A DNA stretch of 57,952 nucleotides, from IMG/VR virus record IMGVR_UViG_3300034109_000966, positions 1 to 57,952 of that record; one strand, written 5' to 3'. Shown here piece by piece: positions 1-17,096 of the stretch. The DNA is from a virus (Duplodnaviria > Caudoviricetes). How positions within the stretch are numbered: position 1 is the stretch's first letter; each line of letters opens with the position of its first letter. The position numbers and the translations under genes are program-made. Under the pieces are notes generated by a model. That model did no database searches. It was given only the letters and a program-made list of their open reading frames with translations, and had not been told where the DNA came from.

Positions 1-1
1 G

Positions 2-847
2 AAAAGCTGGACGACGAACGAGCACGCGGGCAGGCTGGCCTACATGAACACGGCGGCCATCACTGCGGCCTCGGGCTCGGCCGCAGGGCAGGTAGTCCGC
101 ATCACGAGCAACACGGCCACCACACTGACCTTCGCCGCGACCGTTACCGCCCCGACGAACGGCGTGAGCCGCTACAGCATCGCGCGCGGTGACGCGATCG
201 GCACGCTCGATTTCGGTGTCGCGACCGGCACGCAGAGCACAACGACGATTCAGGACACGTCGAAGAGTTGGACGACCAACATCTACGCCGGTCGGCGCGT
301 GCGCGTGCTCACGTCGGGTGGTCCCATCGAGGTGATCGTCGCGTCGAACACGGCCAACACGCTGACCGTCGCCACGATCACCCTGCCGGTGACGGCCGTC
401 ACCCAATACGCGATCCTTGAAGGCAACGCGAAGGGCACCGGCACCAATGCGAATTGGGCCTTCGGCACGTCGAGCGAGGCGCTGCGTGGTCGCTACATGT
501 TTATCGCGCGCGGCGGCGGCGCGTATGGCTTTGAGCGCGTGGACCTCACGACCGATCGCATCAGGGCGATCAACACCGCGCCGCTCACGGAGACCCTCAC
601 CACCGGCTCCATGACGGCCTACGACGGCGGCGACCGCATTTACTTCCACAAGGACGCCACGCAGCGCGTCTACAGCTTGGATGTCGTCACCGGCAAAGTC
701 AACGGCGCGAGCATGTATCCCTACGCCGCGCCGACCGCCGTGATCGGCAACCGCATGGAGATTTTCACGACGAAGGACGGCTTGCGGTATCTCTGGCTGA
801 ACCGCGCCTCGTTCGCCGAGTGCTTCCGCTGCCTGCTCTACTGGTAG
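2..847 (+). CDS. Virion structural/decoration protein with repeated (DT)SKSWTTN..AG modules, 5'-truncated
   Basis: Frame is open from base 2 (KSWTTNEHAGRLAYM...), matching the internal repeat SKSWTTNIYAGRRV; Thr/Ala/Gly-rich beta-type composition. Confidence 0.6.
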   Translation, partial: KSWTTNEHAGRLAYMNTAAITAASGSAAGQVVRITSNTATTLTFAATVTAPTNGVSRYSIARGDAIGTLDFGVATGTQSTTTIQDTSKSWTTNIYAGRRVRVLTSGGPIEVIVASNTANTLTVATITLPVTAVTQYAILEGNAKGTGTNANWAFGTSSEALRGRYMFIARGGGAYGFERVDLTTDRIRAINTAPLTETLTTGSMTAYDGGDRIYFHKDATQRVYSLDVVTGKVNGASMYPYAAPTAVIGNRMEIFTTKDGLRYLWLNRASFAECFRCLLYW

Positions 848-858
848 GAGATCGTCAC

Positions 859-1032
859 ATGACGCTTGATGACATTCTGACGATCCTCGGCCACCGCGTC
901 ACGGCGCTCAGGAATGAGCGCGTGCTCGCGGTCTCGGCGGGCCAGCTCCAGCAGGTCGTGCAGGTCGACGCCGACATCGCGGAGACCGAGATCACGATGC
1001 AATCGATCCAGGCGCTGCTCGCCGGCCAGTAG
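859..1032 (+). CDS. Small coiled-coil hypothetical protein
   Basis: AGGAG RBS before ATG 859; tightly packed between neighbouring genes. Confidence 0.6.
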   Translation: MTLDDILTILGHRVTALRNERVLAVSAGQLQQVVQVDADIAETEITMQSIQALLAGQ

Positions 1033-1038
1033 TCCGTC

Positions 1039-2451
1039 ATGCTGCTCACGTTACTGTCGCCCCGCGAGGCGCAGGTCGGGCGCCTCAGTGGCGCACGCCT
1101 CTGGCGCCTCGTCGGCGACGGTGACGATGACCAGTGGCGGATACCGCTACGCGTTCCGACAACGACGGTTGCGCGCGATCCGGCCGCTGGTGCGCTGGTC
1201 CTGTCTGGCGTCGCGCCGTCGCTGCAGACTACCGTCGCGGTGCCGCTAGGTTCGCTCGTCCTGTTGGGACTGGCACCGTCGATTCCCGCCGCTGGAACGC
1301 CTCCAGCCGGTGCGCTGGTGCTGGTCGGGTACTCGCCGTCGCTGCAGTCTCGCGTCGAGGTGCCTGCAGCCTCCCTGGTGCTGTCTGGCGCGGCGGCGTC
1401 TGCTCGGCACACGCTCACGGTTCCGTCGGCGTCCTTGGCCTTGCAGGGTGCTGTTCCGACGCTGCCAGCGTTTGGTGGCCCACCCGCGGGCACGCTGTCG
1501 CTGACTGGTGCCGTGCCGGCGCTGTTGCTCGCCGTGCCGGTCCCGCAGGGCGCTCTTGCCCTGACCGGTGCGGCGCCGACGTTGTCGGCGGCGTCTACGG
1601 CGTCACCGGATCGCGCGCCGCTGTCCTTGGTGGGCAGTGCCTCGAGCCTCGACGCGCGTCTGACGCCTGCGGCTGCGACGCTGTCGGTGACGGGTCACAC
1701 GCCGTCGCTGCTGGGACAGAACTCGCGCACGCCGGACGCCGGTGCGCTGGTGCTCGCGGGACAGTCGCCGACGCTGCAGACCCGAACGGTCGTTCCTGTC
1801 GGCTCGTTGGCGCTGACGGGACTGGCGCCGACGTTGACGGTGGCGTCTGGCGCGGCACCGCCGTCCGGTGCGCTGACGCTGTCGGGCGTCCCGCCGTCGC
1901 TGCGGTGGGCGTTGCCGGTGCCGGCCGGCAGCCTGTCGCTGACGGGTCAGGCTGGCACGACCGATGTGCGCGTGACGACTCCGACGTCGTTGCTCGCGCT
2001 GTCGGGTCATGCGTCGTCGGTGCAGTCGTCGCTGACGCCTTCGGCTGCGACGCTTGTGCTGTCGGGACGGGTGCCTGCGCTCCGAGAAACGCTGACGCCT
2101 GCAGCTGCGACGCTCGCCTTGGCAGGATACGCGCCCTCGCTGACGGTGCAGGTCCGAGTCCCGGCGGGCAGCTTGGCCCTAGCAGGACTCGCGCCGACGG
2201 CGACGCCAGCCGCAGTGCCCATGTCGTCGGCGCTCGCCTTGACGGGGCATGCGCCGACGCTTCGGTGGGTCGTGTCGCCGAACGCGGCGTCGCTGTCGCT
2301 GCTCGGATGGGTGCCGTTCGCTGAACGGGCGAGCGCTTCGAAGTCGGTGTGGGAATACGACGCGGCTCGAGCGGGCGAAGTTCTGGAGGAAGATGTCTTG
2401 GTGTTGCAGTCGAAGGAGTTTGACGTCTCACGAAAGGGGCCTGAGCAGTGA
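1039..2451 (+). CDS. Repeat-rich putative virion protein
   Basis: Roughly twenty tandem 20-22 aa repeats of the form P..(G/A)(A/S)L.L.G..P.L. Confidence 0.65.
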   Translation: MLLTLLSPREAQVGRLSGARLWRLVGDGDDDQWRIPLRVPTTTVARDPAAGALVLSGVAPSLQTTVAVPLGSLVLLGLAPSIPAAGTPPAGALVLVGYSPSLQSRVEVPAASLVLSGAAASARHTLTVPSASLALQGAVPTLPAFGGPPAGTLSLTGAVPALLLAVPVPQGALALTGAAPTLSAASTASPDRAPLSLVGSASSLDARLTPAAATLSVTGHTPSLLGQNSRTPDAGALVLAGQSPTLQTRTVVPVGSLALTGLAPTLTVASGAAPPSGALTLSGVPPSLRWALPVPAGSLSLTGQAGTTDVRVTTPTSLLALSGHASSVQSSLTPSAATLVLSGRVPALRETLTPAAATLALAGYAPSLTVQVRVPAGSLALAGLAPTATPAAVPMSSALALTGHAPTLRWVVSPNAASLSLLGWVPFAERASASKSVWEYDAARAGEVLEEDVLVLQSKEFDVSRKGPEQ

Positions 2452-2762
2452 GTACTCCACAAATGCGCGTCGGAGACGTTGGGAACGTCATCCGAGCTCG
2501 GATCATCGACAGCGGCGTGCCGTTCGACTTGTCGAGCGCGTCCGTGCTTCAGCTGAAGTTCCTCAAGCCCAGCGGAGTCGTCATCGTGCGGACGGCGACA
2601 GTCACGAATAGCCCGGGAACCGATGGGCGCATGCACTACGAAACTGTGGCGGGAGACCTGGATGAGTCTGGGCCCTGGCAGGGTCAGGCGTACGTTGAAT
2701 CTGGGACCCAGAAGTTCCACACGACCGTTTTCTCGTTCCCGGTCGCGTCTAACCTGAGCTAG
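2448..2762 (+). CDS. BppU N-terminal-like (Ig-like) structural protein
   Basis: GDVG..IR.RI, KPSG and GDLDESGPWQGQAYV pattern typical of this family; GTGA overlap with upstream gene. Confidence 0.6.
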   Translation: MSTPQMRVGDVGNVIRARIIDSGVPFDLSSASVLQLKFLKPSGVVIVRTATVTNSPGTDGRMHYETVAGDLDESGPWQGQAYVESGTQKFHTTVFSFPVASNLS

Positions 2763-2764
2763 CG

Positions 2765-3424
2765 ATGGTCTACGGTCCTCCACGTCTTGAAGACCTGCCG
2801 TACCGGGAGCGCCTCGTCTACTTACTGGGCGACAGGTCGAAGTACCCGGGTGGTCGCTACCCGAACGAGCAGGACCGTGAACCTGGTTCCACCTTGAAAT
2901 CCATCGACACCGAGGAGCCGGTGTCGCTAGAAGCGCTGGGGCGTCTGGAGTCGAGCATCGAGAGGTCGGGCTTTGACGGCGTCGCGGACTTGGCCTTCAG
3001 GGAGATCAAGGGATTCGGGAGCGTGAAGCCCATGGCGGAGTTCCGGTCCGATGGGTCGATCTATGTCAACGCGGAACTTCTGGTTGACCTCGAAGACTCG
3101 GATGACGACTCTCAGCTGGATGGCATCATCGCGCACGAAGTCTCACACGCGCGGTATTCTACGGTGAAGAAGATGCTGGCGAATGGTTCGGCGCCGAAGT
3201 TCGGCGACCACCTCAACAAGAAGCAAGACGAGCTTCGGAAGACCGGCCGGGACGTCTCTCCGTATGCGAAGGCGTGGTGGGACGCCGGCGCGAGGTATCA
3301 CACGGTCATCGATGAGACTCTCGCCGAAGTCGCCGCGGCAAGAATGTCCGGTAAGTCCGTGCCTGACGTCTGGAGTGAAGCGTACGACTTGATGGTCTCG
3401 GCTGCCAAGGGAGCAGACCAGTGA
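2765..3424 (+). CDS. GDRSKYP-tagged zincin-like metallopeptidase
   Basis: N-terminal LPYRERLVYLLGDRSKYPGGRYPNE; HEVSH (HExxH) and downstream SPYA...DETLAE. Confidence 0.75.
   Translation: MVYGPPRLEDLPYRERLVYLLGDRSKYPGGRYPNEQDREPGSTLKSIDTEEPVSLEALGRLESSIERSGFDGVADLAFREIKGFGSVKPMAEFRSDGSIYVNAELLVDLEDSDDDSQLDGIIAHEVSHARYSTVKKMLANGSAPKFGDHLNKKQDELRKTGRDVSPYAKAWWDAGARYHTVIDETLAEVAAARMSGKSVPDVWSEAYDLMVSAAKGADQ
2795..2869 (+). repeat. Tag peptide copy 1: LPYRERLVYLLGDRSKYPGGRYPNE
   Basis: Direct translation. Confidence 0.95.
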
Positions 3425-4917
3425 GAATCCGCGTCGAAGACCTCAAGACGTTCACGCCATCGCCTGACGGCAAGTACGTCGTTGTCCGCGATGAAGAAGT
3501 GAACGGCATCTTCAAGGTCGGCATGCAGTACGAACTCGGCGATCGCTCGAAGTATCCAGGTGGCAAGTACCCGAACGAAGCGGATGACCCGTTAGCGGGG
3601 GAACCTGCGGGTGTTCATCGGCCCGCCGCCATGAAGCGTGTGATGTCGTATCTCGAGACGGCCGCTGGCGTGAAGCTCAAGCCGCATGGGTCTGTGGGGA
3701 AAGGCGTTGATTCAGGGAACGATTTCGACATCCTGCTTGTGGAACCGTCCGACGAAGAGCTTGCGGCGTTGGAAGATGAAGGACGTCGCGAGGAAGACGA
3801 AGTGAAGGCGAAGTTCGACCGCGGAGAGATTTCTCGCGATCAGATGATGGAGGAGCTTTTCGGCGAGTATGAAGACAAGGTCGACACGGCGCTTGAGAAG
3901 ATCGGGTTCAAGTACGTCAAGACCGCTCGGTGGCTTGGGATCATGGCGCACCGGTACGAGAACGAATCGACGAAGCACGCCATCGAGCTCTGGGAGAAAG
4001 ACCCAGACGACAGCCACTACGGGTTGTCGTACCGAGAGAAGCTGGCGATGATGTTGAACGCGCAGTACCCGCCGAAGGCCGGCGAGGGCACCAGGCGCCT
4101 GATCGACGAAGGGCAGGCCCCAGGTCGCTCTCGGATGCGTGCGCCGACGAAGAAGGACCAGGCGCGGATCAAGGCGCTAGGCGTCCCGCCGGCGTGGACT
4201 GATGTGCGGGTGTCAGAAGACCCGAACGCAGCGCTGCAGGTGACCGGAGTCGACGCCAAGGGCCGCTCGCAGCGCATCTACAGCGCCGAGCACACGGCGC
4301 GTGCCGCGGCGGAGAAGTTTGAGCGCGTGAAGGAGTTTCACAAGACGCTGCCGTCGATACGGAAGGCGGTGTTGGAGGACCTGAAGTCTGGCACGCCGGC
4401 AGACCGCGAGAACGCGGCGGTCCTGTACCTGATCGACCAGACAGGGTTCCGCGTCGGGTCGGACACTGACACCGGTGGAGACGTGCAGGCGTTCGGCGCC
4501 ACGACGCTGCGCCGAGAGCACGTCAAGGTGGCCGGGTCGACTGTATCGTTTTCATTCACGGGCAAGAAGGGTGTCGCGATCGAGAAGTCCGTGACCGACA
4601 CGCGCCTCGCCGGGATGATCCGAGACCGCATGCGTCGCGACAACCAGTTGTTTGAGACGGACGACGCGTCTGTGCGTGGCTATCTGAAGAAGGTCGCGGG
4701 TGATTTCAAGGTGAAGGATTACCGGACCTGGCACGGCACGTCGAAAGCGTTGGCGACGATGAAGAAGATGCCGGCGCCAAAGAACAACGCGGAGTTCAAG
4801 CGGGCGCAGGCAGCGGTCTCGAAGGTCGTCGCGGAGCACCTCGGCAACACGCCGACGGTCGCCAAGGCGTCGTACATCGACCCGTCGGTCTGGTCGAAGT
4901 GGGCAGGTGGCAAATGA
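3421..4917 (+). CDS. GDRSKYP-tagged fusion of a Pol-beta-type nucleotidyltransferase-like domain and a bacterial-type DNA topoisomerase IB
   Basis: HGS...NDFDILL NTase motif; TopIB motifs PPAWTDV, GVDAKGRSQRIY, GFRVG, FTGKKG, KDYRTWHGT, LGNTPTVAKASYIDP. Confidence 0.85.
   Translation: MRIRVEDLKTFTPSPDGKYVVVRDEEVNGIFKVGMQYELGDRSKYPGGKYPNEADDPLAGEPAGVHRPAAMKRVMSYLETAAGVKLKPHGSVGKGVDSGNDFDILLVEPSDEELAALEDEGRREEDEVKAKFDRGEISRDQMMEELFGEYEDKVDTALEKIGFKYVKTARWLGIMAHRYENESTKHAIELWEKDPDDSHYGLSYREKLAMMLNAQYPPKAGEGTRRLIDEGQAPGRSRMRAPTKKDQARIKALGVPPAWTDVRVSEDPNAALQVTGVDAKGRSQRIYSAEHTARAAAEKFERVKEFHKTLPSIRKAVLEDLKSGTPADRENAAVLYLIDQTGFRVGSDTDTGGDVQAFGATTLRREHVKVAGSTVSFSFTGKKGVAIEKSVTDTRLAGMIRDRMRRDNQLFETDDASVRGYLKKVAGDFKVKDYRTWHGTSKALATMKKMPAPKNNAEFKRAQAAVSKVVAEHLGNTPTVAKASYIDPSVWSKWAGGK
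3529..3579 (+). repeat. Tag peptide copy 2: YELGDRSKYPGGKYPNE
   Basis: Direct translation. Confidence 0.95.
4024..4074 (+). repeat. Half copy of tag: LSYREKLAMMLNAQYPP, before the TopIB domain
   Basis: Matches the LSYR(E/D)(R/K)L...L half only. Confidence 0.7.
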
Positions 4918-6251
4918 GCGACGAGAAGCACGATCCGAACGACGAACTCGCGTCCGAGATGGACGAGTTGTTCGAGACCGTCCGGTTCGAAGGGGACGTG
5001 CAGCCGTGGCGCGACGTCGCGGAGACCGATGAGGACCCAGACGACGAGTCGCCGGCCACGGTGTCTCTGGCCGATCGCGTCCACGAAGGGCTGATGGTCG
5101 CGATCCCGGTGCCGACGACGATTGCGACGGCGCTGCAGGTGCTCGACGGCATTGCGCCCGAAGACATGCACCTGACGCTCTGCTACGTCGGCCGCGAACG
5201 TGCGTCCGTGTTGTCGCCGCAGGACTTGATTGACCTGACGTTCGCGGTGGCCACGGTGGTCGAGCGGACGGACCCGTTCGAGGTCCGCCTCGAGCGCCTG
5301 GACCGGTTCCCGGCCTCGGACTCGTCGGACGGCCAGGACGTGATCCACGCGGTTGTGACCGGTGACGCGCTGCTGGAGCTCCGGAAGAAGGTCTACGCCG
5401 CGCTCAAGAAGGCCGGCTCCGAGCCGAAGCACGACTTCGAGTACACGCCGCACATCACGATTCAGTACGTGGCGCCAGGCTCGCAGCATCTGCTTGACGA
5501 GATTCCGCCGATGGTGATGCCGGTGACGTCCGTCGAGATGTTCAAGGTCGGCAAGATCGCGATGATCCCGCTCGGCGTGCAGAACGTGAAAGACGCCGAA
5601 GCGCTGGAGCGCCTCCGCCGCCTGCCGCGCGCCAGCGAACGGGGCGTCGAGTGCGTCCGCACGCGCGACATCTTCGACCATCCGATGTTCGAGGTGAAGG
5701 CCCCGTTGAACCGGAAGACGACGATGAACGTGCTTGAGCACGTCCCGCTCGCCAGCTTGGCGCCGAGCCAGGCGCTGATCCCGGCGCAGGGGTTGGAACG
5801 GTACATCACGAAGCCACGGAAGGACCCGTCGGACATCGCGCGGTTCGAATCGCGCACGGGTCAGGTGCGGTACGTGATTCAGGAAGGTCACACGCGGTTG
5901 GCCGCGGCCAAGCTCCGACAGCCCGACGCATCGATCGAGTCGCGCGTCTGGATGTTCGAAGAGGACGACCGTGGCGACTGGAAGCCGGTCGAGCGCGGCA
6001 TGCACAAGCGCGCGAAGTTGAACCTGTCGGCCGACAAGGAAGACGTCGATGACGGCCGGTGGGTCACGAATCCGTATGAAGACATCGTGATCGTCGAGCG
6101 TTCGGAGTCAGGACACAGCCTGACGCTGGACGCGATCGCACGAGGACGTGCACGCGTCGCCGCCGGCGAGAACATCGACGATGTCATCGAAGACCTGATT
6201 GCCGAGGACTTGCTCGAGAAGGGGCTCGTGCCAGGAGTCTCGAATGCTTAG
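4914..6251 (+). CDS. 2H phosphoesterase (2'-5' RNA ligase-like) fused to a ParB/Srx-like domain
   Basis: Two HxT motifs (MHLTL, PHITI); VIQEGHTRLAAA ParB-like motif; ATGA overlap with upstream stop. Confidence 0.75.
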   Translation: MSDEKHDPNDELASEMDELFETVRFEGDVQPWRDVAETDEDPDDESPATVSLADRVHEGLMVAIPVPTTIATALQVLDGIAPEDMHLTLCYVGRERASVLSPQDLIDLTFAVATVVERTDPFEVRLERLDRFPASDSSDGQDVIHAVVTGDALLELRKKVYAALKKAGSEPKHDFEYTPHITIQYVAPGSQHLLDEIPPMVMPVTSVEMFKVGKIAMIPLGVQNVKDAEALERLRRLPRASERGVECVRTRDIFDHPMFEVKAPLNRKTTMNVLEHVPLASLAPSQALIPAQGLERYITKPRKDPSDIARFESRTGQVRYVIQEGHTRLAAAKLRQPDASIESRVWMFEEDDRGDWKPVERGMHKRAKLNLSADKEDVDDGRWVTNPYEDIVIVERSESGHSLTLDAIARGRARVAAGENIDDVIEDLIAEDLLEKGLVPGVSNA

Positions 6252-9200
6252 CTACCGCGACCGTATCCGATACGAGCTCGGCGACCGTTCCAAGTACCCG
6301 GACGGAAAGTACCCCGGAGAAGCCGGGTATCACGGCACGTCTATCGAAGCGGCACGTAAGATCAAGACCGAAGGGCTGAAGCTGTCGAAGACGCCGCATA
6401 ACATGCCTGGCGTCTGGGTCGCGCACAAAGAGTCGGACGCCCTGAGTTACGCGGTTGGTCAGGGACGCGGCATCGGCAGCAAGCACGTTGTTCCCGACGA
6501 CGACGACTTGATCGCGCTCGTTGTGGTACGGCCCTCAGCGGCTTCGCTATTCACGCGCTACCCTGGTCAAGGCGCGTCAGTCTCGATGAAGGATGTACCA
6601 GCCAAGCATATCGAAGAAGTACGAGTCTACCGCGCTGGCGATGTGCGGAGATGGCAGGACCGTGGCGAGAAGAGCAAGCTGAAGTATACGAACTTGTCAG
6701 ACGAGTCAGGCTACACGTACGTCTCGATCTTGTTGTCGAAAGACGAGGAAGTAGTTAGTCTAGGCGATCGTTCGAAGTACCCGGGTGGGCTGTATCCGAA
6801 CGAACAGGACGAGATCGAGTCGAACGGCGTCGACTTCAGCAGCCTGAAGCGAGTCGGTGAGGCGCAGGGCTCGAACCCGGGTGGCTTCTACGAAGACGCC
6901 GCTGGCGATAAGTGGTACGTCAAAGACTACAAGAACCCGGACCAAGGCGCCGCGGAACACGTCTCGAATGCGATCTACCGTGCCGTGGGCATCGACGTGC
7001 CCGTCTCGGTGCTCGGCGAGGGCCCGGACCACGGCAAGTACGCCAGCCAGATTCGCGAGGGCAAGATTCTCGCGAGGGCGGGTCTGACCGAGGAGACCGC
7101 GAACAAGGTGCTTGACGGCTTCGCGGCCGACGTGCTGACGATGAACTGGGACGCGGTCGGCACAGGCCACGACAACGTGCTCGTCGAGGCAGGGACCGGT
7201 ACGCCGGTGCGCATCGATCAGGGCGGGACGCTCACGTTCCGTGCGCAGGGAGCGCCGAAGCCGGCGGACTTGTTGAAGGGGATTGGCGAGTGGGAGTCGC
7301 TGCACTCGCAGAACTCGTACTACCGCGCGGTCTTCACCCGCGCGGGGCTCAAGGGCCCGGACGACCCCAAGTTCGCGAGCCGCGTGAAGGCGCAGGTCTC
7401 GAAGATCGTGAAAGCGCGTCCGGCGGGTGGTTGGTCGAAAGTCGTGAACAGGTTCGCGCCTTCGACGAAAGACGCGGTGAAGAAGACGTGGGCGGAAATG
7501 CTCGACGCGCGCACCGAGGCGCTGGCGCGGAAGGTCGGCATCGATCTGTCGATGAGCTATCGGGACAAGCTCGTCTTCCTGCTCGGCGATCGGTCGAAGT
7601 ATCCAGACGGGAAGTATCCGAACGAACAGCAGAGCGGACCCAAGCCGCCGGCGAAGCGCTACGCCGTCAAGCAGCGGCCTGACGGAAAGTGGCAGATTTA
7701 CGACCGCGTCTTCACGTACAAGGACAAGGACTCGCCGCAGGGACCAGGCCACGTGAAGGCCACGAAGGAAGAAGCGCTCGCGAAGGCCGCGCACATGGAG
7801 GCGAAGTTCGGCGCCGGTCATCCGGAGTGGGAGAAGATTGCGGAGCAGATCGCGGTGTTCAACCAGTCTGGACTGCACGGCAGCGAGTGGAAGAAGGCGA
7901 ACATCTGGAAGGCGAAGATTCTTGCCAAGGAGATGAAGGCGACGTCTCCTTCGGACGCGGCGTCGGTGGGGATGACGCCAGATCAGTTCATGGCGGCGAC
8001 GTCGAACATCGCGAAGGCCGAATCGTCGCTCAAGGAGGCGCTGCTGTCTCCGGCGCCAGATGGCTGGCCGATTGGTGACGACGTGATGCGCATAGACGGC
8101 CAGAAGTACCCAGCGGTCGTGAATAAGGCGTACGAAAAGTGGATGTCCGGTCTTAACAACGACGAATTGGAAGCTGTCGAGAGATACACGGCGAACGGCT
8201 ACGACTCGTGGAACGCGTATCTTCGAATGACTCAACCGAAGATGGGCACGATCGTGAATCCTGAAACGCTTCCCACGAAAACGAACACCCTGCAGCGAGC
8301 GCTTCACCGGGCGCCGTCGCCGCCGCCGCCTGAGTTGGTCTGGAGAAAGACGGGAGGCGCGAGCTTCTACGATGGCTTGTCGTCTGGCGACACGATCAAG
8401 TTGACGGGATTCACGAGCGCGTCGATTTCGGTCGGCACATGGTCTGGCAGCACCGTGTTGGAAATCTTGCCTGTCGCTGGTGCGTATGTCGACCCGATCT
8501 CGTCGAGCAAGGGAGAGAAGGAGTACCTGCTCCCGCACGCCGCGAGGTACAAGGTCGTAGGACGAAAAGAACTCAAGCTGGGCTACTCGAAGAAGACGGT
8601 CGTGCAGCTGAAGATGCTCGACAAGGGTCCGGACGTCGTCGTCCCGGAGAAGACGGTGAAGCTCTCGTACCGTGAGCGCCTTGTGTTTATGCTCGGCGAC
8701 CGCTCGAAGTATCCAGGCGGGAAGTATCCGAACGAAGAAGGGGCGTCTGAGTCGCCGGTAGGCGACGAGGAGTGGGACCTCGAGGGGTCCGGCGTGATGA
8801 ACATGCCGGACATCAGCGATGTGTCGTTCCCGACGATGATCGGCGCCGTCGACCCGGTGAATCCCAAGAAGAAGTCGCGGAAGAAGCGCGTCCCGTATCA
8901 GGGCGTCATGCTCGGCCGTCGGCCGACGGAGTTCGAGTCGGAAGTCTTGTCGCTGTCAGCGATCCCGAAGCGGTTCGACAGTGAGGTTGAACGTGCGTCC
9001 GCACAAGTTGTCGAGCTCCGTCTGCAGTACGCACGCGACCAGAACCTGCCGTCGCTCGATCAGGGGCTGTCGGTGGTGCTCTCAAGCGCGCAGGACCGCA
9101 TCGCGCGGTACGGCGCCGCGGAGCTCCGGAACGAATGCCGGCGGCAGTACTTGCCGATCTCGCTGTGCGATGAATCGGACGCGCGCTTCGACGGCTTGTC

Positions 9201-9699
9201 CACGGCCGTGGCGTCTTCGGCGATCGAGACGGCGAAGATGTTGTCGACCGAGTGGGCGTCGGAAGTGACGCGGGTCGGCTCACGCACGCGCAGGGCTCGT
9301 CGCCCCGATGCGCTGCTGGAGCTCGCAACGCCTCGCGCGGACTGGGGCGTGAAGAGCGCGGTGCGTCGGTTGCTGAACGAGAGTTTCGCGTTGGCGCGTC
9401 GGACGCATATGATGTCGATCGCGTCGTCATGTGAGCGCTCGAACGTGATCTCGCTGAAGGTCGTCGACGCCGACAAGGCGGAGGAGTTGGTGGACTACGT
9501 GATCCAGTCCGCGGTGATGGACACGTCGACCTGCGATCCGTGCGCGGATGCGGATGGTCTCACGTTCGAGTACGACAGCGACGAGATGATCGAGCATCAG
9601 CCGCCGTACTTCCGGTGCTTGGGTGGCGATCACTGCCGGTGCGTGCAGGTGTACGTGTTGAAGGACGGTGGTTCATGGGTGATGCGAGGCGCTCCGTAA
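6244..9699 (+). CDS. Polyvalent MuF-type minor head protein: H-Y-type ART, PI3/4-kinase/HipA-like kinase, unknown domain plus VIP2/Alt-like ART, C-terminal MuF; four GDRSKYP tags
   Basis: CCAGGAG RBS before ATG 6244; YHGTS..GVWVA..ALSYA; GSNPGGFY..WYVK..NWDAVG..DNV..RIDQGG; RYT..Y..NAYLR..VWR..GFTSAS..EKEYLLP; AVMDTSTCDPC..PPY..HCRC; lies shortly upstream of the head protease gene. Confidence 0.8.
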   Translation: MLSYRDRIRYELGDRSKYPDGKYPGEAGYHGTSIEAARKIKTEGLKLSKTPHNMPGVWVAHKESDALSYAVGQGRGIGSKHVVPDDDDLIALVVVRPSAASLFTRYPGQGASVSMKDVPAKHIEEVRVYRAGDVRRWQDRGEKSKLKYTNLSDESGYTYVSILLSKDEEVVSLGDRSKYPGGLYPNEQDEIESNGVDFSSLKRVGEAQGSNPGGFYEDAAGDKWYVKDYKNPDQGAAEHVSNAIYRAVGIDVPVSVLGEGPDHGKYASQIREGKILARAGLTEETANKVLDGFAADVLTMNWDAVGTGHDNVLVEAGTGTPVRIDQGGTLTFRAQGAPKPADLLKGIGEWESLHSQNSYYRAVFTRAGLKGPDDPKFASRVKAQVSKIVKARPAGGWSKVVNRFAPSTKDAVKKTWAEMLDARTEALARKVGIDLSMSYRDKLVFLLGDRSKYPDGKYPNEQQSGPKPPAKRYAVKQRPDGKWQIYDRVFTYKDKDSPQGPGHVKATKEEALAKAAHMEAKFGAGHPEWEKIAEQIAVFNQSGLHGSEWKKANIWKAKILAKEMKATSPSDAASVGMTPDQFMAATSNIAKAESSLKEALLSPAPDGWPIGDDVMRIDGQKYPAVVNKAYEKWMSGLNNDELEAVERYTANGYDSWNAYLRMTQPKMGTIVNPETLPTKTNTLQRALHRAPSPPPPELVWRKTGGASFYDGLSSGDTIKLTGFTSASISVGTWSGSTVLEILPVAGAYVDPISSSKGEKEYLLPHAARYKVVGRKELKLGYSKKTVVQLKMLDKGPDVVVPEKTVKLSYRERLVFMLGDRSKYPGGKYPNEEGASESPVGDEEWDLEGSGVMNMPDISDVSFPTMIGAVDPVNPKKKSRKKRVPYQGVMLGRRPTEFESEVLSLSAIPKRFDSEVERASAQVVELRLQYARDQNLPSLDQGLSVVLSSAQDRIARYGAAELRNECRRQYLPISLCDESDARFDGLSTAVASSAIETAKMLSTEWASEVTRVGSRTRRARRPDALLELATPRADWGVKSAVRRLLNESFALARRTHMMSIASSCERSNVISLKVVDADKAEELVDYVIQSAVMDTSTCDPCADADGLTFEYDSDEMIEHQPPYFRCLGGDHCRCVQVYVLKDGGSWVMRGAP
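6247..6321 (+). repeat. Tag peptide copy 3: LSYRDRIRYELGDRSKYPDGKYPGE
   Basis: Direct translation. Confidence 0.95.
6751..6804 (+). repeat. Tag peptide copy 4: VVSLGDRSKYPGGLYPNE
   Basis: Direct translation. Confidence 0.95.
7546..7626 (+). repeat. Tag peptide copy 5: LSMSYRDKLVFLLGDRSKYPDGKYPNE
   Basis: Direct translation. Confidence 0.95.
8662..8736 (+). repeat. Tag peptide copy 6: LSYRERLVFMLGDRSKYPGGKYPNE
   Basis: Direct translation. Confidence 0.95.
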
Positions 9700-9995
9700 T
9701 GAAGTGGCTGAAAGCGATGCTCGGGTGGGATCGTGACGCGGTGCCAGCGTCGACGGAGCATCTCGTGGAGCGCGTCGACGTCTTTGTCGTGGCTCGCTGT
9801 CCGTGCGGATCGGAACACGAGCACCAGTTGGCGCTGCACAGCGTCTCGCTGTGCAGGCGCTGCGGGCAGGAGATCGCGATCCGATCGCTGCAGTACGTTC
9901 GGCAGGATTCGGCAATTCCGCGAACAAGTGTGCATGTGGGACCGGTCGCGTCACGCGAGGCGCTCCGACGCCGGGCCACCACGGGCGTCCACTGA
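9699..9995 (+). CDS. Small zinc-ribbon protein
   Basis: TAATG coupling to the MuF gene; CPCG...CRRCG. Confidence 0.6.
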   Translation: MKWLKAMLGWDRDAVPASTEHLVERVDVFVVARCPCGSEHEHQLALHSVSLCRRCGQEIAIRSLQYVRQDSAIPRTSVHVGPVASREALRRRATTGVH

Positions 9996-10207
9996 TGCGC
10001 TGCTCGTTCTGCCGTCTGCGCCGTGTCCGCGTCGTGCTGTCCGGCGACCGCTGGTTGTGGTTGTTCGCGTGCACGAAATGCGCGCGCAAGCACGAATTCG
10101 AGACGGATTACCCGCCCGCCAGCATCGCGGAACTCCATAGAATCAACACGTTACGGAAGGGTATTGCAAGGCGAACAATGATTTCGCACAGTACCATCCG
10201 TGCCTGA
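9995..10207 (+). CDS. Small zinc-ribbon protein
   Basis: TGATG coupling; CSFC...CTKC. Confidence 0.5.
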   Translation: MRCSFCRLRRVRVVLSGDRWLWLFACTKCARKHEFETDYPPASIAELHRINTLRKGIARRTMISHSTIRA

Positions 10208-11939
10208 AACCTTCGACAAGGTCGTCATCTCGTGGCCGAAGTCGCTGATCAACGCGTCTGAAGTCCAGAAGTCCGGCCCGCGCCGGTCCTGGATTCAGTT
10301 GGCGAGGACGGGCTCGTTCACGAGCAACCGGTACGGGAAGTTCAGCATCACGCGAGACGACCTCTCGCAGATGCTCCACAACTTCAACAACATCACGCCG
10401 AAGAAGCCGACTGAGCTCCCGATCGACTACGACCATCTGTCGATGGACCCGAAGAAGCCTGGGGACGGCATCGCCGCGGGATGGATGAAGTCGCTCGAGC
10501 TTCGTGGCGACGAACTGTGGGCGGAAGTCGAGTGGACGCCAGACGGTGCGAAGCGCGTCGACGCCGGCGAGTACCGCTTCATCAGCCCGAGCTTCGTCAA
10601 GGACCACACGCACAAGGACGGGAAGAAGATCGGCACGACGCTGCTCGCCGCGGCGGTGACGAACCACCCGTTCCTGGAAGGCATGAAGTCGCTCACGCTG
10701 AGCAACGACTCGGTCTTCGGATCGCTCGGCGTCTCCGATGACGCCGAAGTCGTGAACCTGTCGGCGCAGATCGGTCAGCGCGTCATGATCGCCCCGGGGC
10801 ACGCGCGCACGGCCGACGAGATGGGCAGCACGTTCGAGATCGTGGATGCCATCGGCGAAGGCGAAGACTGCTTTGTGGCGCTGAAGGACCTGAACGGCGT
10901 GCTCCACAAGTGGTTCAAGGCGACGGAACTGCTGCCGTCGTCCGCGACGCCTGCGTCTCCGCTCGCGCCGAACCTAGTCGCATCGCCGGGGACGCCAGCC
11001 GCGCTGCAGCCAGGCTCCGGACTCCCGGCTGACGCTGCCGCTGGTGCGCCAGGAGCCGTAGACCCCGCTGCAGACCCTGTGGCTGCGGCCATGGCGTCCG
11101 GCGACCCGGCTGAGATGGCGGCGGCGATCGAGGAAGACCCTGAAGCCGCGGCGGCCGCGATGGCGGAGGACCCGGAAGCGCTGCCGATGGACCCGGACGC
11201 GCTGGCGGAGGACGAACTCGCTGGTGAGACCGACGAGTTTGCCGGCGACGAAGCCGATGCCGAAGACGAGGGCTTCGAAGAAGAAGTGGCGTCGGATGAA
11301 GAAACCACGGAAGACGACGAAGAACCAACTTCGTTCCTCCGCAAGCGGGCCATGGCCGCCAAACAGAAGGGGACAGTGAACATGCGATTCCAGCTCAGGA
11401 ACGACAAGAACGAAGTGATCGAGGTGACGGCCGAGCAGCTTGCGGCCGCCGGCATCCAGGTGGTTCCGGAAGGCGCCACCGTGATCGGCAAGAAAGACCT
11501 CAACGACCTCCGCAGCAAGGTGACGAACCTGTCGTCGACCGTCGAAGAGCTCCGGAAGTCGAACGAGGAGTCGCTCGCGGCGTCGCGTCAGGCGCAGATG
11601 CAGGCTGACCTCGACCGCCTCTCGGGCGAAGGCTACATCACGAAGCCTCAGCGCGAGTTCGCGCTCTCGACGTGGGGCGAAGCCTCGGAAGCGGACATGA
11701 AGGCGTTCGGCGCGTGGGCGAAGACGTTCACGAAGCCGGTCGTGCACCTGAACCGCGAGCACGGCATCGGCGGCGACGCCGACGTCGAATCGCGTGAGGC
11801 GTCGGCGGGTTCGGAGCTCATCGATCTCGCGAACGACCTGGCGGACACGAAGAACCTGTCGATGCGCGACGCGATGATCGAGGCGAGCCGGCAGCGGCCG
11901 GACCTGGCGCTCGCGTACCGCGAGCACTACGCCGACTAG
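10200..11939 (+). CDS. Mu gpI-like prohead protease/scaffold protein
   Basis: WIQLARTG, PIDYDH, AAGWM, LWAEVEWT, EYRFISPSF, AAVTNHPFLEGM; acidic linker and coiled-coil C-terminal scaffold. Confidence 0.9.
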   Translation: MPETFDKVVISWPKSLINASEVQKSGPRRSWIQLARTGSFTSNRYGKFSITRDDLSQMLHNFNNITPKKPTELPIDYDHLSMDPKKPGDGIAAGWMKSLELRGDELWAEVEWTPDGAKRVDAGEYRFISPSFVKDHTHKDGKKIGTTLLAAAVTNHPFLEGMKSLTLSNDSVFGSLGVSDDAEVVNLSAQIGQRVMIAPGHARTADEMGSTFEIVDAIGEGEDCFVALKDLNGVLHKWFKATELLPSSATPASPLAPNLVASPGTPAALQPGSGLPADAAAGAPGAVDPAADPVAAAMASGDPAEMAAAIEEDPEAAAAAMAEDPEALPMDPDALAEDELAGETDEFAGDEADAEDEGFEEEVASDEETTEDDEEPTSFLRKRAMAAKQKGTVNMRFQLRNDKNEVIEVTAEQLAAAGIQVVPEGATVIGKKDLNDLRSKVTNLSSTVEELRKSNEESLAASRQAQMQADLDRLSGEGYITKPQREFALSTWGEASEADMKAFGAWAKTFTKPVVHLNREHGIGGDADVESREASAGSELIDLANDLADTKNLSMRDAMIEASRQRPDLALAYREHYAD

Positions 11940-11987
11940 TCGGCAGACGTTTCCCACGACCCAGTCTGAGAGCTACGAGGAGCACAC

Positions 11988-12389
11988 ATGAGGATCAACC
12001 GTCCGGGAATGGACACGACGATCGAAGCGTCGGCGGACCTTTCCACGCATCAGTTCAAGTTCGTGATCGGCGCGGCGGCGTCCGGCAACTCGCAGCTGGC
12101 CCGTGTGAACGTCTCCGGCGCCAACGGCCGGTCGTTCGGCATTCTGCAGAACAAGCCTTCGGCGGCGGGTCTGGGCGCGGTCGTGCGTCTCGCCGGCACG
12201 TCGAAGCTCGTCGTGGACGGCAGCGGCTCGGCCATCTCGGTGGGTAGCCCGCTGAAGGCGGACGCGTCGGGACGCGGTGTCGTCGCCGGCACGGACAAGG
12301 ACAAGGTCGGCGCCATCGCGCTCGAAGCGAGCTCGGCGGCGAACGATGTGATCGAAGCGCTGATCTGCATCTACGACATCGCGGTGTAG
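11988..12389 (+). CDS. Capsid decoration/cement protein (DUF2190-like)
   Basis: GILQNKP, ADASGR, GAIALEA pattern; between protease and capsid genes; GAGGAG RBS. Confidence 0.8.
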   Translation: MRINRPGMDTTIEASADLSTHQFKFVIGAAASGNSQLARVNVSGANGRSFGILQNKPSAAGLGAVVRLAGTSKLVVDGSGSAISVGSPLKADASGRGVVAGTDKDKVGAIALEASSAANDVIEALICIYDIAV

Positions 12390-12489
12390 TCGTCGTCTAG
12401 CGGCGGCGGGCACGGGCGCAAGTACGTAGGGGCCGTAGGCCAGCGCCCGGAGGCCACCGTCACAACCAGTCTTCTAGGAAAGAAACACG

Positions 12490-13413
12490 ATGCCGCTGAT
12501 CACCTCAGTGAAGTTCGACCAGCTGCTGACGAACATCTCGCTGCAGTTCGCCGCTGCGCCGGACGGCTACTTGGCCGACATGGTGCTGCCGTCGGTGCCT
12601 GTCGCGAAGGAGTCAGCTGCGTACTGGGTCTACGACCGTTCTCGGATGGACGCCCCGGACTCGAAGCGCGCGCCGCGCAGCGAGTACAACCGGATCGACT
12701 GGAACGTGTCGACCGACACGTACCTGTGCGAGCAGTACGGTCTCGAGGGCGAGATCGACGACCAGGAGCGCAAGAACTCCGCGGCGCCGCTCGACCTCGA
12801 TGTCGACACGACGGAAATCGTGACCGACATGGTGCTGAACGGCCGCGAGAAGCGCGTTGCCGACCTCGTGCTCGCGACGGCGAACATCTCGCAGAACACG
12901 ACGCTCGCCGGCGTGAACCAGTGGAGCGACCCGGGCAGCGACCCGCTGAACGACGTGCGGATCGCGCGCGTCGCGATCTACACCGGGGCGCCGGGCTACA
13001 CGCCGAACACGATGGTGATCGGCTACCAGGTGTTCGAAGCGCTGAAGCAGCACCCGGACGTCAAGGAAATCGTGAAGTACACGGAGCGTGCGATCATCAC
13101 GCGCCAGATTCTCGCCGCCGTGTTCGAGGTGGACGAGCTCCTGGTCGGCAAGGTGACCCGCCGCACGTCGAAGGAAGGCCAGACCGACGCCTTCGGCGAC
13201 GTGTGGGGCAAGGACGCCCTGCTGTACTTCCGCGAGATGCGTCCGTCGCTGAAGCGCGCGAGCTTCGGCTACCAGATGCGTCAGGAAGACCTCAAGGTGT
13301 TCCGCTACCGTGAGGACAAGCGCGACACGGACGTCATCCGCGTCTCGGAGAAGCAGGACGAGAAGCTCGTCGCCGAGAAGCTGGCGTACCTGTTCAAGGC
13401 AGCGGTGGCCTAG
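12490..13413 (+). CDS. Major capsid protein
   Basis: DQLLTNIS, AD.VLP.VPV, E.RVA.LV, QWSD..SDP, PNTMVIG, WGKDALL, YLFKAAVA; size and position. Confidence 0.88.
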   Translation: MPLITSVKFDQLLTNISLQFAAAPDGYLADMVLPSVPVAKESAAYWVYDRSRMDAPDSKRAPRSEYNRIDWNVSTDTYLCEQYGLEGEIDDQERKNSAAPLDLDVDTTEIVTDMVLNGREKRVADLVLATANISQNTTLAGVNQWSDPGSDPLNDVRIARVAIYTGAPGYTPNTMVIGYQVFEALKQHPDVKEIVKYTERAIITRQILAAVFEVDELLVGKVTRRTSKEGQTDAFGDVWGKDALLYFREMRPSLKRASFGYQMRQEDLKVFRYREDKRDTDVIRVSEKQDEKLVAEKLAYLFKAAVA

Positions 13414-13802
13414 TGCCGCGCTGTAAGGTCCTGACCAATCTCCGCGCGAACGAAGGCACGTTCGTGCTTGGCGACATCGCGGAGCTTGAGCAGGCCACCA
13501 TCGATGCACTTCCCGAAGGGACGGTGCGCCTCCTCGCAGAGGCTCCGCCGCCTCTTCGGACCGATGGTCCGACGCTGGAGGAGTACGTGTCGGCGGGCAA
13601 CGAACCGGCGTCGTATCCGCCGGCCGGGTATACGGAGCGAGAGTCCGAGGGACTGACGGCGTTCCGTGAACAGCAGAAGGCGGACGAACTCGAAGCGGCG
13701 AAGGCGCGTGTGGCGTCGTTGCTAGGCACGAAGTCGGAGCCCGGGACGCCTGTCGAACCTGTAGCCCCGCCGGCACCGACGAAGGACAGCAAGAAGAAGT
13801 AG
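13413..13802 (+). CDS. Hypothetical head-associated protein
   Basis: TAGTG coupling to the capsid gene. Confidence 0.6.
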   Translation: MPRCKVLTNLRANEGTFVLGDIAELEQATIDALPEGTVRLLAEAPPPLRTDGPTLEEYVSAGNEPASYPPAGYTERESEGLTAFREQQKADELEAAKARVASLLGTKSEPGTPVEPVAPPAPTKDSKKK

Positions 13803-13805
13803 CCC

Positions 13806-14267
13806 ATGCCCTACGCCACCATCGATGACGTGCAGCGACGGATGCCGCAGTTTCAACTGCTGCCGACGTCGAAGCCGTCCATCGAATCGGCGCAGGTGTT
13901 CCTCGACGATTGCCACGCGCACTTCGACGCGGCGATGTCGAACTTGGGCTACGTGATCCCGCTCACGGGTAAGCGAGCGCTCTCGCAAGCCCGTGAAATC
14001 GTGTCTCAGGGCACGATCGCGCGCATCTTGTACGCGCGCGGCGCGGCCTTGGGCACGGACGCGGCCTTCCAGAGCGCTGACCGTGCGCAGAAGCAGTACG
14101 ACGACGCACTGAAGGCGCTCGCGGACCCGCGGTCTCCCGCAGAACTGTCGGATGCGGCCCGGACCGATGATCAGACGGAGAAGCCAGGCAACGAGCTTGG
14201 CGGTCTGCTGGTCGACGAAGACGGGTACGACATCGAACCGCGCATCACCATGAGCACGGATTTCTGA
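13806..14267 (+). CDS. Head-tail adaptor (Mu gp36-like)
   Basis: MPYATIDDV start, GYVIPL, YDDALKAL; synteny. Confidence 0.75.
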   Translation: MPYATIDDVQRRMPQFQLLPTSKPSIESAQVFLDDCHAHFDAAMSNLGYVIPLTGKRALSQAREIVSQGTIARILYARGAALGTDAAFQSADRAQKQYDDALKALADPRSPAELSDAARTDDQTEKPGNELGGLLVDEDGYDIEPRITMSTDF

Positions 14268-14770
14268 TGGCGACGGTGCTGTCGTTCAACGTCGAAGGTG
14301 GTGACCGGACGTTGCAGGGGTTGGCGGCGCTGGACACGGCGCTCAAGGACCTTCGCCCGTTCTGGCGCGACGTCTTTGCCCCGAAGTACTTCGGCGTCGT
14401 GCAGGACCTGTTCGCGACGGGCGGGCGGGCGCGCGGCGGCGGTGGACGCTTCAAGTCTGGTGCGTGGGCGCCGTTGTCGCCGGCGTATCGCGAGTGGAAG
14501 AAGAAGCACTTCCCCGGGCAGCCGATCTTGGTGCGGTCCGGTGATTTGCGGGAGTCGGTGCGGTGGGATGGCGCGCGTCTCGGCGCCGGCGGCCAGTTCG
14601 ATGCGCAGCCGGGATTCGTGATCGCGGGCACGACCATCCCGTACGGCAAGCACCACCAGAACGGCGCCGGGAAGATGCCGAAGCGCGAGTTCTTGCCGAG
14701 CCCGGACCCTGCGGTCTTCGCTCCGTTGCTGGCCGCGTGGCTGATTCGCAACACGAGTGGGGTGAAGTGA
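14267..14770 (+). CDS. Virion morphogenesis/tail completion protein (Mu gpG-like)
   Basis: WAPLSPAY..K, ILVRSGDLRES, YGKHHQNG, MPKREFL. Confidence 0.8.
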   Translation: MATVLSFNVEGGDRTLQGLAALDTALKDLRPFWRDVFAPKYFGVVQDLFATGGRARGGGGRFKSGAWAPLSPAYREWKKKHFPGQPILVRSGDLRESVRWDGARLGAGGQFDAQPGFVIAGTTIPYGKHHQNGAGKMPKREFLPSPDPAVFAPLLAAWLIRNTSGVK

Positions 14771-15244: not shown

Positions 15245-15255
15245 GGGAGACGCCA

Positions 15256-15597
15256 ATGGCTGTTCTGAGTGTTCAGGTTCCGACGACGGCAGGCCCGACG
15301 TTCACGGCTGCGGCCGCGGCGGTCGGTGGTGACAGCTTCGTCAACACGGGCGTCGAGTTCTTCTACGTGAAGAACGGCAGCGGTGGCGCACTCACCGTGA
15401 CCTTCGACTCGCCGGGTACGTGCAGCTTTGGCCTCGCGGCCAGCGCGTCGCACGACCTCGCGGTATCGGTGGGCGCCGGCGTGGAGAAGATCATCGGGCC
15501 GTTCCCGCGCGATCGCTTCAGTGACGCGAACGGCTCGGTGCAGGTGACGTACTCTGGCGTGACGTCGCTGACGGTCGCCGTGCTGAGGCAGTCGTAG
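15256..15597 (+). CDS. Hypothetical virion protein
   Basis: GGAG RBS; GGDSFVNTG...IGPFP..F pattern seen in phage structural genes. Confidence 0.65.
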   Translation: MAVLSVQVPTTAGPTFTAAAAAVGGDSFVNTGVEFFYVKNGSGGALTVTFDSPGTCSFGLAASASHDLAVSVGAGVEKIIGPFPRDRFSDANGSVQVTYSGVTSLTVAVLRQS

Positions 15598-15600
15598 GCT

Positions 15601-16511: not shown

Positions 16512-17096
16512 ATGCGCTCTGACGCGCTCTCCGCGCTGATCCGGAAGCGGTTCGCTGTGCTCTTTGAGCTCGGCGACCGCTCCAAGTACCCGGGCGGGAA
16601 GTATCCGAGCGAAGAAGGCGGATCAGAGAGCTCGGGCGCTAAGGCTGCTCCACTTCCTGGCGATGACGATTTCGACTACGACGCCGACGACGCCTACGAT
16701 GAGGCGATGGCGAAAGAAGACGACAGGGATAACGCTCGTCGTCAGTCTGAGCGCGACGAAATCGCTCGCACGGAGAAGCACTACGCAGAGAAGCGAGCCA
16801 AGCTCGACAAAGACGAATCCGGAGAGACGGACGTCGAGAACGCGCTTCGAGATGGGCAGTCACGCGAAGAATTCTTGAGCGCGGTCACCGCAAACAGGCG
16901 TTTCTCCAGTATTTCAGACACGCTGCAGTCACGCGGCTACAAGTCCGGGAAGCCGAAGACCGTGCGTAACGCGACCACGGCGATCTTCAAGAAGAAGGGC
17001 AGCGACGATGTGTCGGTGCAAGTCATCTCTCCGAGCCCGCTCGACGCCAGCCGTGGGCAGCACTCGACCATCGTTCGTACGACAGTGATGAAGTAG
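16512..17096 (+). CDS. GDRSKYP-tagged protein of unknown function inserted in the tail operon
   Basis: LFELGDRSKYPGGKYPSEE near the N terminus; acidic/charged middle; small basic C-terminal domain. Confidence 0.75.
   Translation: MRSDALSALIRKRFAVLFELGDRSKYPGGKYPSEEGGSESSGAKAAPLPGDDDFDYDADDAYDEAMAKEDDRDNARRQSERDEIARTEKHYAEKRAKLDKDESGETDVENALRDGQSREEFLSAVTANRRFSSISDTLQSRGYKSGKPKTVRNATTAIFKKKGSDDVSVQVISPSPLDASRGQHSTIVRTTVMK
16563..16613 (+). repeat. Tag peptide copy 7: FELGDRSKYPGGKYPSE
   Basis: Direct translation. Confidence 0.95.

Follow-up and report, generated by a model that had tools for sequence, protein, structure and literature searches.

Poxviruses carry a type IB topoisomerase (TopIB) in the particle, in support of early transcription, and type IB enzymes such as those of poxviruses and Deinococcus radiodurans need neither ATP nor Mg2+ nor single-stranded DNA. 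Here we describe a gene of a tailed virus, the open reading frame (ORF) 3421-4917 of viral record IMGVR_UViG_3300034109_000966 (Duplodnaviria; Caudoviricetes), whose full stretch of 57,952 bases is called the window below. The gene lies among head genes and encodes a TopIB behind a nucleotidyltransferase-like (NTase-like) domain, with short repeated peptides, hereafter tags, before and between the two. Relatives in other viruses provide strong comparative evidence that such TopIBs travel in the particle. For the window's own protein, we lean towards the reading that it is a tagged cargo, loaded into the head and delivered together with the DNA, in which TopIB would act as an active, cofactor-free swivel.

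Several described systems come close. Vaccinia H6R, listed as a late gene (PMC11980589), is likewise a small TopIB made late, but it belongs to a eukaryotic virus and has no portal, tail, ejection, fusion partner or tags. The jumbo phages Lu11, PaBG and phiRSL1 have a phage-specific TopIB (29% identity to the window's in Lu11); it is treated there under DNA topology and replication functions, and no fusion to a head protein is described (PMC7824862). Phage polyvalent proteins are late-gene, MuF-linked, multi-enzyme proteins predicted to enter the cell with the DNA, with zincin peptidases proposed as their processing enzymes (PMC5512222). They resemble the window in combining disparate enzymes in one polypeptide within a late or virion neighbourhood, and in their links with MuF, zincin-like peptidases, ADP-ribosyltransferase (ART), 2H, InPase, NUDIX and ParB-like domains. 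The window's protein joins two disparate domains, NTase-like and TopIB, in a late context with MuF-like and zincin-like neighbours, both matched below curated thresholds (E 0.001 and 0.003). It thus fits the theme of polyvalent or ejected effectors, and its two domains are new relative to the main texts on that theme: in PMC5512222 'topoisomerase' occurs there only within a reference title, the 131 domains being listed in supplements, and Pol-beta NTases come only from conjugative elements, while the word is absent from the main text of Jamet 2017 (PMC5576092). The latter describes MuF polymorphic toxins, in which a head-associated carrier bears a variable C-terminal enzyme, an arrangement similar to the TopIB-MuF fusions found below. 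Unlike these toxins, ORF 3421-4917 has no MuF match, and no immunity gene is apparent. The literature searched contained no description of TopIB as head cargo of a tailed phage.

Topoisomerase IB half and its viral relatives

In Pfam, the C-terminal half matches Topoisom_I (PF01028; 1.9e-31, 109.7 bits against a cut-off of 23.7, residues 296-483) and Top1B_N_bact (PF21338; 5e-13, 49 bits against 27, residues 244-278). The second match covers profile positions 15-49 of 49 only, and, judging by this late beginning, the enzyme lacks the first hairpin of its cellular counterparts. The best match among all PDB sequences (phmmer) is D. radiodurans TopIB (2f4q, 4e-38, residues 247-498), followed by archaeal/eukaryotic-type and variola enzymes (variola 2h7f at 2.8e-6). 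Aligned to 2f4q, residues R344 (in GFRVGSD), K382 (first K of GKKG), R435 (in KDYRTW), N476 (in LGNTP) and Y485 (in SYIDP) fall on chain positions 137, 174, 239, 280 and 289, which we take to be the Deinococcus catalytic pentad. The Asn at 476, where poxvirus and eukaryotic enzymes have His, is the bacterial form of the pentad. Alignment and codons thus bear out all five catalytic positions named in an earlier annotation made from the letters of the window (the original prediction), and the ORF ends, as judged from these matches, in a complete TopIB of the bacterial/poxvirus type. The D. radiodurans and variola enzymes have the same two domains and pentad; in contrast to them, the window's enzyme is short of some 14 positions at the start of its N-terminal profile, follows another enzyme in one polypeptide and is flanked by tags.

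A tyrosine recombinase or telomere resolvase was also considered and set aside, as only TopIB families matched in the profile scan. The sequence CCCTT, the cleavage site of poxvirus and Deinococcus TopIB, occurs 73 times in the window (expected 56.3 +/- 7.2), and 64 of these matches are on the - strand; we read this excess as a coding-strand effect (AAGGG in ribosome-binding sites, Lys-Gly codons), not informative as a signal of TopIB sites.

A survey of TopIB genes for nearby head genes had been suggested with the original prediction. We scanned 2.9 million viral contigs with a pattern built on a TopIB alignment; 277 stretches came up, and 254 of them proved to encode a relative. The 80 best of these 254 and locus L008 make up the 81 loci surveyed (L008-L088). 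In 56 of them, the TopIB ORF reaches at least 150 aa upstream or at least 100 aa downstream of the TopIB match. A Pfam scan of these 56 extended ORFs revealed in-frame fusion to a portal protein (PF06381, PF04860, PF05136) in 24 of the 81 loci and to MuF in 6, one of which is below cut-off. Other fusion partners were ART-PolyVal, 2H, GNAT plus Acb1, InPase, NUDIX, Zeta toxin and DUF192. For the 51 loci with neither portal nor MuF fusion, the scan was extended to the nearest same-strand ORFs, at most two per side (185 proteins, E <= 1e-5): in 25, these neighbours include a portal, MuF, terminase, prohead-protease or capsid family, 4 show weaker head signs (DUF4055, a sub-threshold portal, DUF2213, and in L008 a portal match at 1.3e-5), and 13 have effector-type neighbours only (ART, Zeta toxin, NUDIX, InPase, PI3/4-kinase-like, SNF2). 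In 69 of the 81, at most 18 residues separate the end of the TopIB match from the stop of the ORF.

A word-indexed protein search, which draws on independent gene calls, returned 786 proteins at E <= 1e-3. The best 120 of these are 43-60% identical to the window's protein, in the TopIB half only, and include fusions to MuF (5), a portal family (3), InPase (6) and NUDIX (2), with ART, Acb1, DRAT and ParBc once each. On a quick maximum-likelihood tree (82 rows, 76 distinct), fused and unfused TopIBs intermix; the fewest changes that account for this are 16 for portal fusion and 5 for MuF fusion. The window's TopIB groups, with moderate support, with loci fused to or adjoining portal or MuF.

Cellular relatives look different. 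Among 185,579 prokaryotes (one genome per species), the best are 44-46% identical and belong to Dehalococcoidia-type assemblies, and many mycobacterial ones are 36-39% identical; in all 17 ORFs read from the 80 genome loci kept, TopIB stands alone (306-425 aa). Low identity and stand-alone ORFs together suggest that the head-linked TopIBs are a viral group distinct from the cellular enzymes.

Some further features of the surveyed loci deserve mention. Zeta-toxin-like kinase domains often adjoin or are fused to head-linked TopIBs (L015, L018, L023, L032, L040, L043, L044). In L069 and L070, the gene right after TopIB, beside a portal-MuF fusion, codes for a ferritin-like protein. Inteins are present in genes adjoining TopIB in L019 (2098-4026) and L035 (4159-6930), in the latter within a T4-type portal.

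The nucleotidyltransferase-like half

The original prediction placed a GS/DxD NTase-like motif in front of TopIB, and this holds: HGS (residues 89-91) and NDFD (100-103) are invariant in the 13 aligned family members, as are L78, H89, G90, S91, G95, S98, N100, D101, D103, G162, F163, T184, H186 and W191. H66, R178 and E189 are nearly invariant in the same alignment, and E189, a candidate third carboxylate, sits on a predicted strand (186-193). The profile search that had been proposed for this segment found no Pfam family for residues 1-240 even at E 10, nor anything useful for the whole protein in NCBIfam; relatives of residues 58-215 and weak Pol-beta-fold hits did come up. The relatives amount to only 27 other clusters at E <= 1e-3, 24 of them at 1e-10, among 1.84 billion representatives (phmmer). 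In Pfam, 9 of the 27 contain MuF, 7 of these above the curated cut-off, and 2 contain TopIB (P0145 and P0132, the latter in the order MuF, NTase-like domain, TopIB). The remaining partners are NUDIX plus ART, 2H, GNAT, Tpt1, ParB-like nuclease and VapB-like domains, and 11 of the 27 clusters have no family. The 5'-open ORF of locus L030 is a third case of the NTase-like domain directly before TopIB. From these sequences, the family is unnamed, rare and found mostly inside MuF-linked multi-domain phage proteins.

An AlphaFold model made with the 13-member alignment has block-mean pLDDT values of 84-97 over residues 61-190; residues 1-51 and 205-240 are poorly predicted. The modelled order is a helix, a strand, the GS turn, a strand with DxD, three helices and three strands. 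Foldseek found nothing for this model at E <= 1e-3 in PDB and BFVD, and its top sub-threshold PDB rows are nearly all Pol-beta-fold transferases (URT1, TUT7, Cid1, Pol beta/lambda/mu). VIA-align, run against 48,161 chains, put LnuA first (4wh5; Z 7.7, rmsd 2.7, 88 aligned; a Z below 8 counts as middling for this tool), then Trf4, TdT, TUT1, ASFV Pol X and MenT1 at Z 6.6-6.8, with many NTases at Z 5-7. A NuoC-like fold (complex I chain, Z 7.2) was set aside, the invariant GS/NDxD motif fitting an NTase. The family profile HGSvgrGetSkNDfDiiv aligns with Pol beta CGSFRRGAESSGDMDVLL (GS...DMD) at E 0.4, which is not significant alone, and an Atlas neighbour cluster with NTP_transf_2 scores 0.90, a lead only. 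Fold support consists of the consistent identity of the weak hits and of VIA-align Z values of 5-7.7 only; with the conserved motifs, we consider it probable that residues 58-195 are a minimal Pol-beta-type nucleotidyltransferase. Compared with known Pol-beta-fold NTases (LnuA, MenT1, ANT(2''), TUTases, Pol X), the domain shares the hG[GS] and DxD motifs and probably the fold, but differs by a long helical insert (residues 111-160) between the DxD strand and the later strands and by the conserved H66, H89 and H186.

Tags and gene context

The tag LGDRSKYPGGKYPNE first surfaced in three other genes when the record was searched with the TopIB protein. A regular-expression census counts seven copies of LGDRSKYP(G/D)G(K/R/L)YP in four genes of the record (Table 1), and an amphipathic stretch of the LSYRERLVFML type often stands just before a copy. 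Pairs of copies have 12-15 of 16 residues in common, and 2-8 of the identical residues are written with different codons; these synonymous differences show that the peptide is kept by selection and does not stem from recent DNA duplication. Four copies split one 1166-aa protein into four segments, in the manner of a polyprotein. The 'half tag' LSYREKLAMML of the original prediction is indeed present (residues 202-212, nt 4024-4056) but is not a half: it runs on as YPPKAGEGTRRLIDEG / NAQYPPKAGEGTRRLIDEG and forms a whole tag of a second type.

This variant type is that of the closest related contig, metagenome contig L089, where five genes in a row after a Mu-type portal (Portal_Mu 7e-45; portal and genes at 6540-13493) contain six copies of (L/F)..KYP(P/A)GAGE(A/G)TRRxIDEG. 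The L089 TopIB (P0002), 59% identical to the window's and encoded four genes after that portal, has an N-terminal tag LSYRDRL...KYPAGAGEGTRRMIDEG. Within one genome, the tags seem to have been homogenised to a type; from genome to genome, the type seems to vary. Three tagged genes of L089 have a further element in common, the N-terminal module M(R/K)I..(Q/T)R(S/T)DG..L...GGG.GV. The window's own type was found neither in viral contigs with a back-translated GDRSKYPGGKYP pattern nor in metagenome contigs with a looser one (both scans may exclude the window's own record), nor, by regular expression, in the 81 viral TopIB ORFs.

Other phages have short, Gly/Pro/Arg-rich motifs at the position of the tag. 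Within 90 residues upstream of TopIB, the HPR..G.F type occurs in 39 of the 81 ORFs, G.FGH.GRPG in 7, NP.HD..G.F in 6, GH.F.GNQW and GPGSGR.P in 2 each, and none of these in 25. Since different short motifs fill the same place elsewhere, the window's tags may be one lineage's version of a general module-junction device. Junction motifs of these kinds ([EDNQ]xxHPRxxxGxF, GxFGHxGRPG, NPxHDxxGxF, GHxFxGNQW, GPGSGR(Y/H)P) recur before enzyme modules of portal- or MuF-linked proteins, and the 25-residue DUF7211 of Pfam was matched inside the TopIB ORF of L052 and in the adjoining ORF L052:8741-11008.

Our best guess is that the tag serves procapsid loading, or as a cutting site, or both. Capsid-targeting peptides are known in several systems, among them the CTS of T4 internal proteins, the C-terminal tail of the HK97 protease and the cargo-loading peptides of encapsulins. 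Like these, the tag is a short common peptide on unrelated putative cargo encoded with head genes; unlike them, it is about 15-27 aa long with another sequence and stands also between domains.

Table 1. Positions in the window of ORF 3421-4917, its parts, the tag copies and the neighbouring genes
Feature	Positions	Strand	Basis
Gene upstream of the TopIB gene; N-terminal tag and HExxH (HEVSH); M48/zincin-like, E 0.003, below threshold	2765..3424	+	
Tag copy, N-terminal in gene 2765-3424	2795-2884	+	
Shine-Dalgarno-like AAGGGAG, 7 nt 5' of the GTG start	3407..3413	+	read from sequence
Whole ORF, 498 aa: leader, tag, NTase-like domain, second tag, TopIB	3421..4917	+	
N-terminal leader, residues 1-38; beta-hairpins predicted at low confidence (pLDDT 38-49)	3421..3534	+	
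Tag copy LGDRSKYPGGKYPNE, residues 39-53 of the TopIB protein	3535..3579	+	
Probable minimal Pol-beta-type NTase-like domain, residues 58-195; HGS 3685-3693, NDFD 3718-3729, candidate third carboxylate E189	3592..4005	+	
Second tag, variant type LSYREKLAMMLNAQYPPKAGEGTRRLIDEG, residues 202-231	4024..4113	+	
TopIB N-terminal domain (Top1B_N_bact, profile positions 15-49 of 49)	4150..4254	+	Pfam
TopIB catalytic domain	4306..4914	+	Pfam, PDB match, codons
Catalytic codons R344, K382, R435, N476, Y485	4450-4452, 4564-4566, 4723-4725, 4846-4848, 4873-4875	+	read in DNA
Downstream gene; 2H phosphoesterase (LigT/Acb1-like) and C-terminal region like the ParB-like part of L089 gene 12171	4899..6251	+	
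1166-aa multi-domain protein; four tags, four segments (ADP-ribosyltransferase in segment 3), Cys-rich C-terminus weakly MuF-like	6199..9699	+	
Four tag copies in the 1166-aa protein, each at a segment boundary	6247-6330, 6760-6816, 7552-7635, 8662-8745	+	
Mu-like prohead protease (N-terminal, 8e-27) and acidic, helical C-terminal part	10200..11939	+	
Major capsid protein (phrog_1005 3e-79)	12490..13413	+	
Fourth tagged gene, directly after a tail-tube-like gene	16512..17096	+	
Tag copy, N-terminal in gene 16512-17096 (residues 19-33)	16569-16613	+	

The GTG start of ORF 3421-4917 overlaps the stop of the upstream gene as GTGA, and the gene after it likely starts at ATG 4914, in an ATGA overlap. 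No promoter-like sites were found in 1-13500 and no terminator-like sites on the + strand before 10041. With the overlaps, this suggests that the gene is one link in a tightly coupled, co-oriented block. Downstream stand the MuF-like/ART protein, the Mu-like prohead protease and the major capsid protein, in agreement with the head-gene region originally predicted. The implied MuF neighbour holds in part: the C-terminus of the 1166-aa protein is weakly MuF-like, at 1e-3 and 20.2 bits against Pfam's threshold of 29.6 (TIGR01641 0.008 and phrog_595 1.8e-10 in other libraries). The predicted distance from the replication module is confirmed, as recombination/replication-type genes (Metallophos/Mre11-like, SbcC-like, IstB/DnaC-like, Ku) start at about 33.6 kb.

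Among the neighbours, gene 4899-6251 matches 2_5_RNA_ligase2 (4e-14) and, weakly, the anti-CBASS protein Acb1 (5e-4); L089 gene 10891 shares its acidic N-terminus, ELxxEMDELFETVxFEGDVQPWRDV. The ADP-ribosyltransferase match of the 1166-aa protein is at 1e-13. Its first two tag-delimited segments (window 6328-7548; 142 + 245 aa) match no Pfam family at E 0.05; the gene after TopIB in L030 has a PI3/PI4-kinase-like match, which makes a kinase a lead for the second segment. A BppU_N-like gene lies further upstream of gene 2765-3424, and 1039-2451, also upstream of the tagged genes, encodes a 470-aa protein with many degenerate (A/S)LxL(S/T)G..P(S/T)L repeats and no family match. The capsid gene is followed by tail genes and then by a peptidase (Peptidase_M15_4, D-alanyl-D-alanine carboxypeptidase family) taken for an endolysin. 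With a Ku homologue at 51684-52556 (Pfam Ku 4e-26) and Mre11-like and SbcC-like genes at 33604-37887, the phage seems to have invested in DNA-end handling, which may bear on the action of an injected TopIB at genome ends.

The record (G+C about 0.58-0.69) is classed as linear, and its CheckV completeness of 48% marks it as a fragment; portal and terminase presumably lie on the missing part. Searches of the record with the Portal_Mu family and with the L089 portal protein gave no match, which shows little, since the control genomes of the family gave none either. A 74.8-kb contig encodes an identical protein; near-identical DNA for window 1-20000 was not found among 50,697 phage records. Two cultured phages, Bacteroides phage BS162P1 and Xanthomonas phage PhiXhv-15, gave no informative gene context, their neighbours being mostly hypothetical proteins.

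Particle cargo and the alternatives

How could a topoisomerase gene come to lie among head genes, and what would the enzyme do there? In the scenario we favour, the NTase-TopIB protein would be a product of the late head operon, made alongside further tagged enzymes of effector type, namely the zincin-like protein, the 2H phosphoesterase and the ADP-ribosyltransferase on its MuF-like carrier. The tags would bring these proteins into the procapsid, or mark cut sites between them, or both, and the proteins would leave the particle together with the DNA. TopIB could then be a swivel inside or just outside the particle, a setting open to it because it requires no ATP, Mg2+ or single-stranded DNA, and we lean towards a role in relieving torsional stress on the phage genome at ejection and first transcription. 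Loading, delivery, the DNA target and any NTase substrate we infer. Packaging in the virion, as originally predicted, is supported by comparison for the family, 30 of the 81 relatives being fused to portal or MuF and 25 more adjoining head genes; for the window's protein, loading would follow from the shared tag and its putative function.

Several points weigh against this scenario. The window's TopIB protein is itself not fused to a head protein, and the fragmentary record yielded no portal or terminase in profile scans. The MuF-like end of the 1166-aa protein is sub-threshold, and the tagged gene 16512-17096 lies in the tail region, a misfit for a purely head-directed signal. The survey covers part of the confirmed relatives, seven locus pairs in it are near-duplicates, so that independent counts are somewhat lower, and 9 of the 51 unfused loci have neither head-related nor effector-like genes among the neighbouring ORFs scanned. 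Support in the tree is below 80 at 36 of 73 forks. Among the 50,697 phage records, only 9 match the protein, the best at less than 30% identity and in the TopIB half only.

Three other scenarios are considered. First, a delivered TopIB may be aimed at the host, where it would relax the negatively supercoiled chromosome (host shut-off) or act like the C-terminal domain of a MuF toxin. The extreme C-terminal place of TopIB in 69 ORFs is the position of the toxin domain in MuF toxins (Jamet 2017, PMC5576092), and its neighbours and fusion partners include host-directed effector types (ART, Zeta toxin, NUDIX, Acb1-like 2H). However, with its religation-competent pentad fully kept, the enzyme does not obviously look like a DNA poison, the next gene overlaps and leaves no place for a small immunity-like one, and the few molecules injected would presumably have to compete with host gyrase. 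We regard this scenario as unlikely, if worth keeping in view.

Second, TopIB may be a structural swivel, anchored to the portal (through fusion in relatives, through the tag in the window) and relaxing the twist of packaging in the capsid without ATP. The C-terminal side of the portal, which faces the capsid interior in solved portals, is where TopIB is attached in 24 of the 81 relatives, and the enzyme needs no cofactor. Yet the linker motifs, such as the HPR type in 39 of the 81, fit separation or flexibility for most TopIB modules, and the window's protein is free-standing; we find this scenario quite improbable here. A wider proposal, which we hold doubtful, is that of a broad undescribed class of tailed phages in which TopIB is built into the DNA-translocating head vertex, through portal or MuF fusion or through a tag, and serves as a cofactor-free swivel on the phage's own genome during both packaging and ejection. 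A still bolder version would have its strand-transfer chemistry join the genome ends after entry. Third, an unpackaged late cytoplasmic enzyme for replication, recombination or concatemer processing, placed among head genes by mosaic accident, is very unlikely: the jumbo-phage TopIBs are discussed with DNA topology (PMC7824862) and L008 has a family A DNA polymerase three genes upstream of TopIB, but the in-frame portal and MuF fusions of 30 loci would go unexplained, and the window's own recombination/replication-type genes begin about 28 kb away.

How torsional stress is handled as a phage genome is forced into and out of the capsid is an open question, and no topoisomerase is known to us as part of the particle of a tailed phage. 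Now that dozens of viral contigs show TopIB fused to portal or MuF, and the window a free-standing tagged form, the question can be put directly to the test. These forms also add TopIB, and with it a new family of probable minimal nucleotidyltransferases, to the proteins probably delivered by phages together with their genome. The tag, if it is a natural signal for cargo loading or processing, could serve as a means of bringing foreign proteins into capsids.

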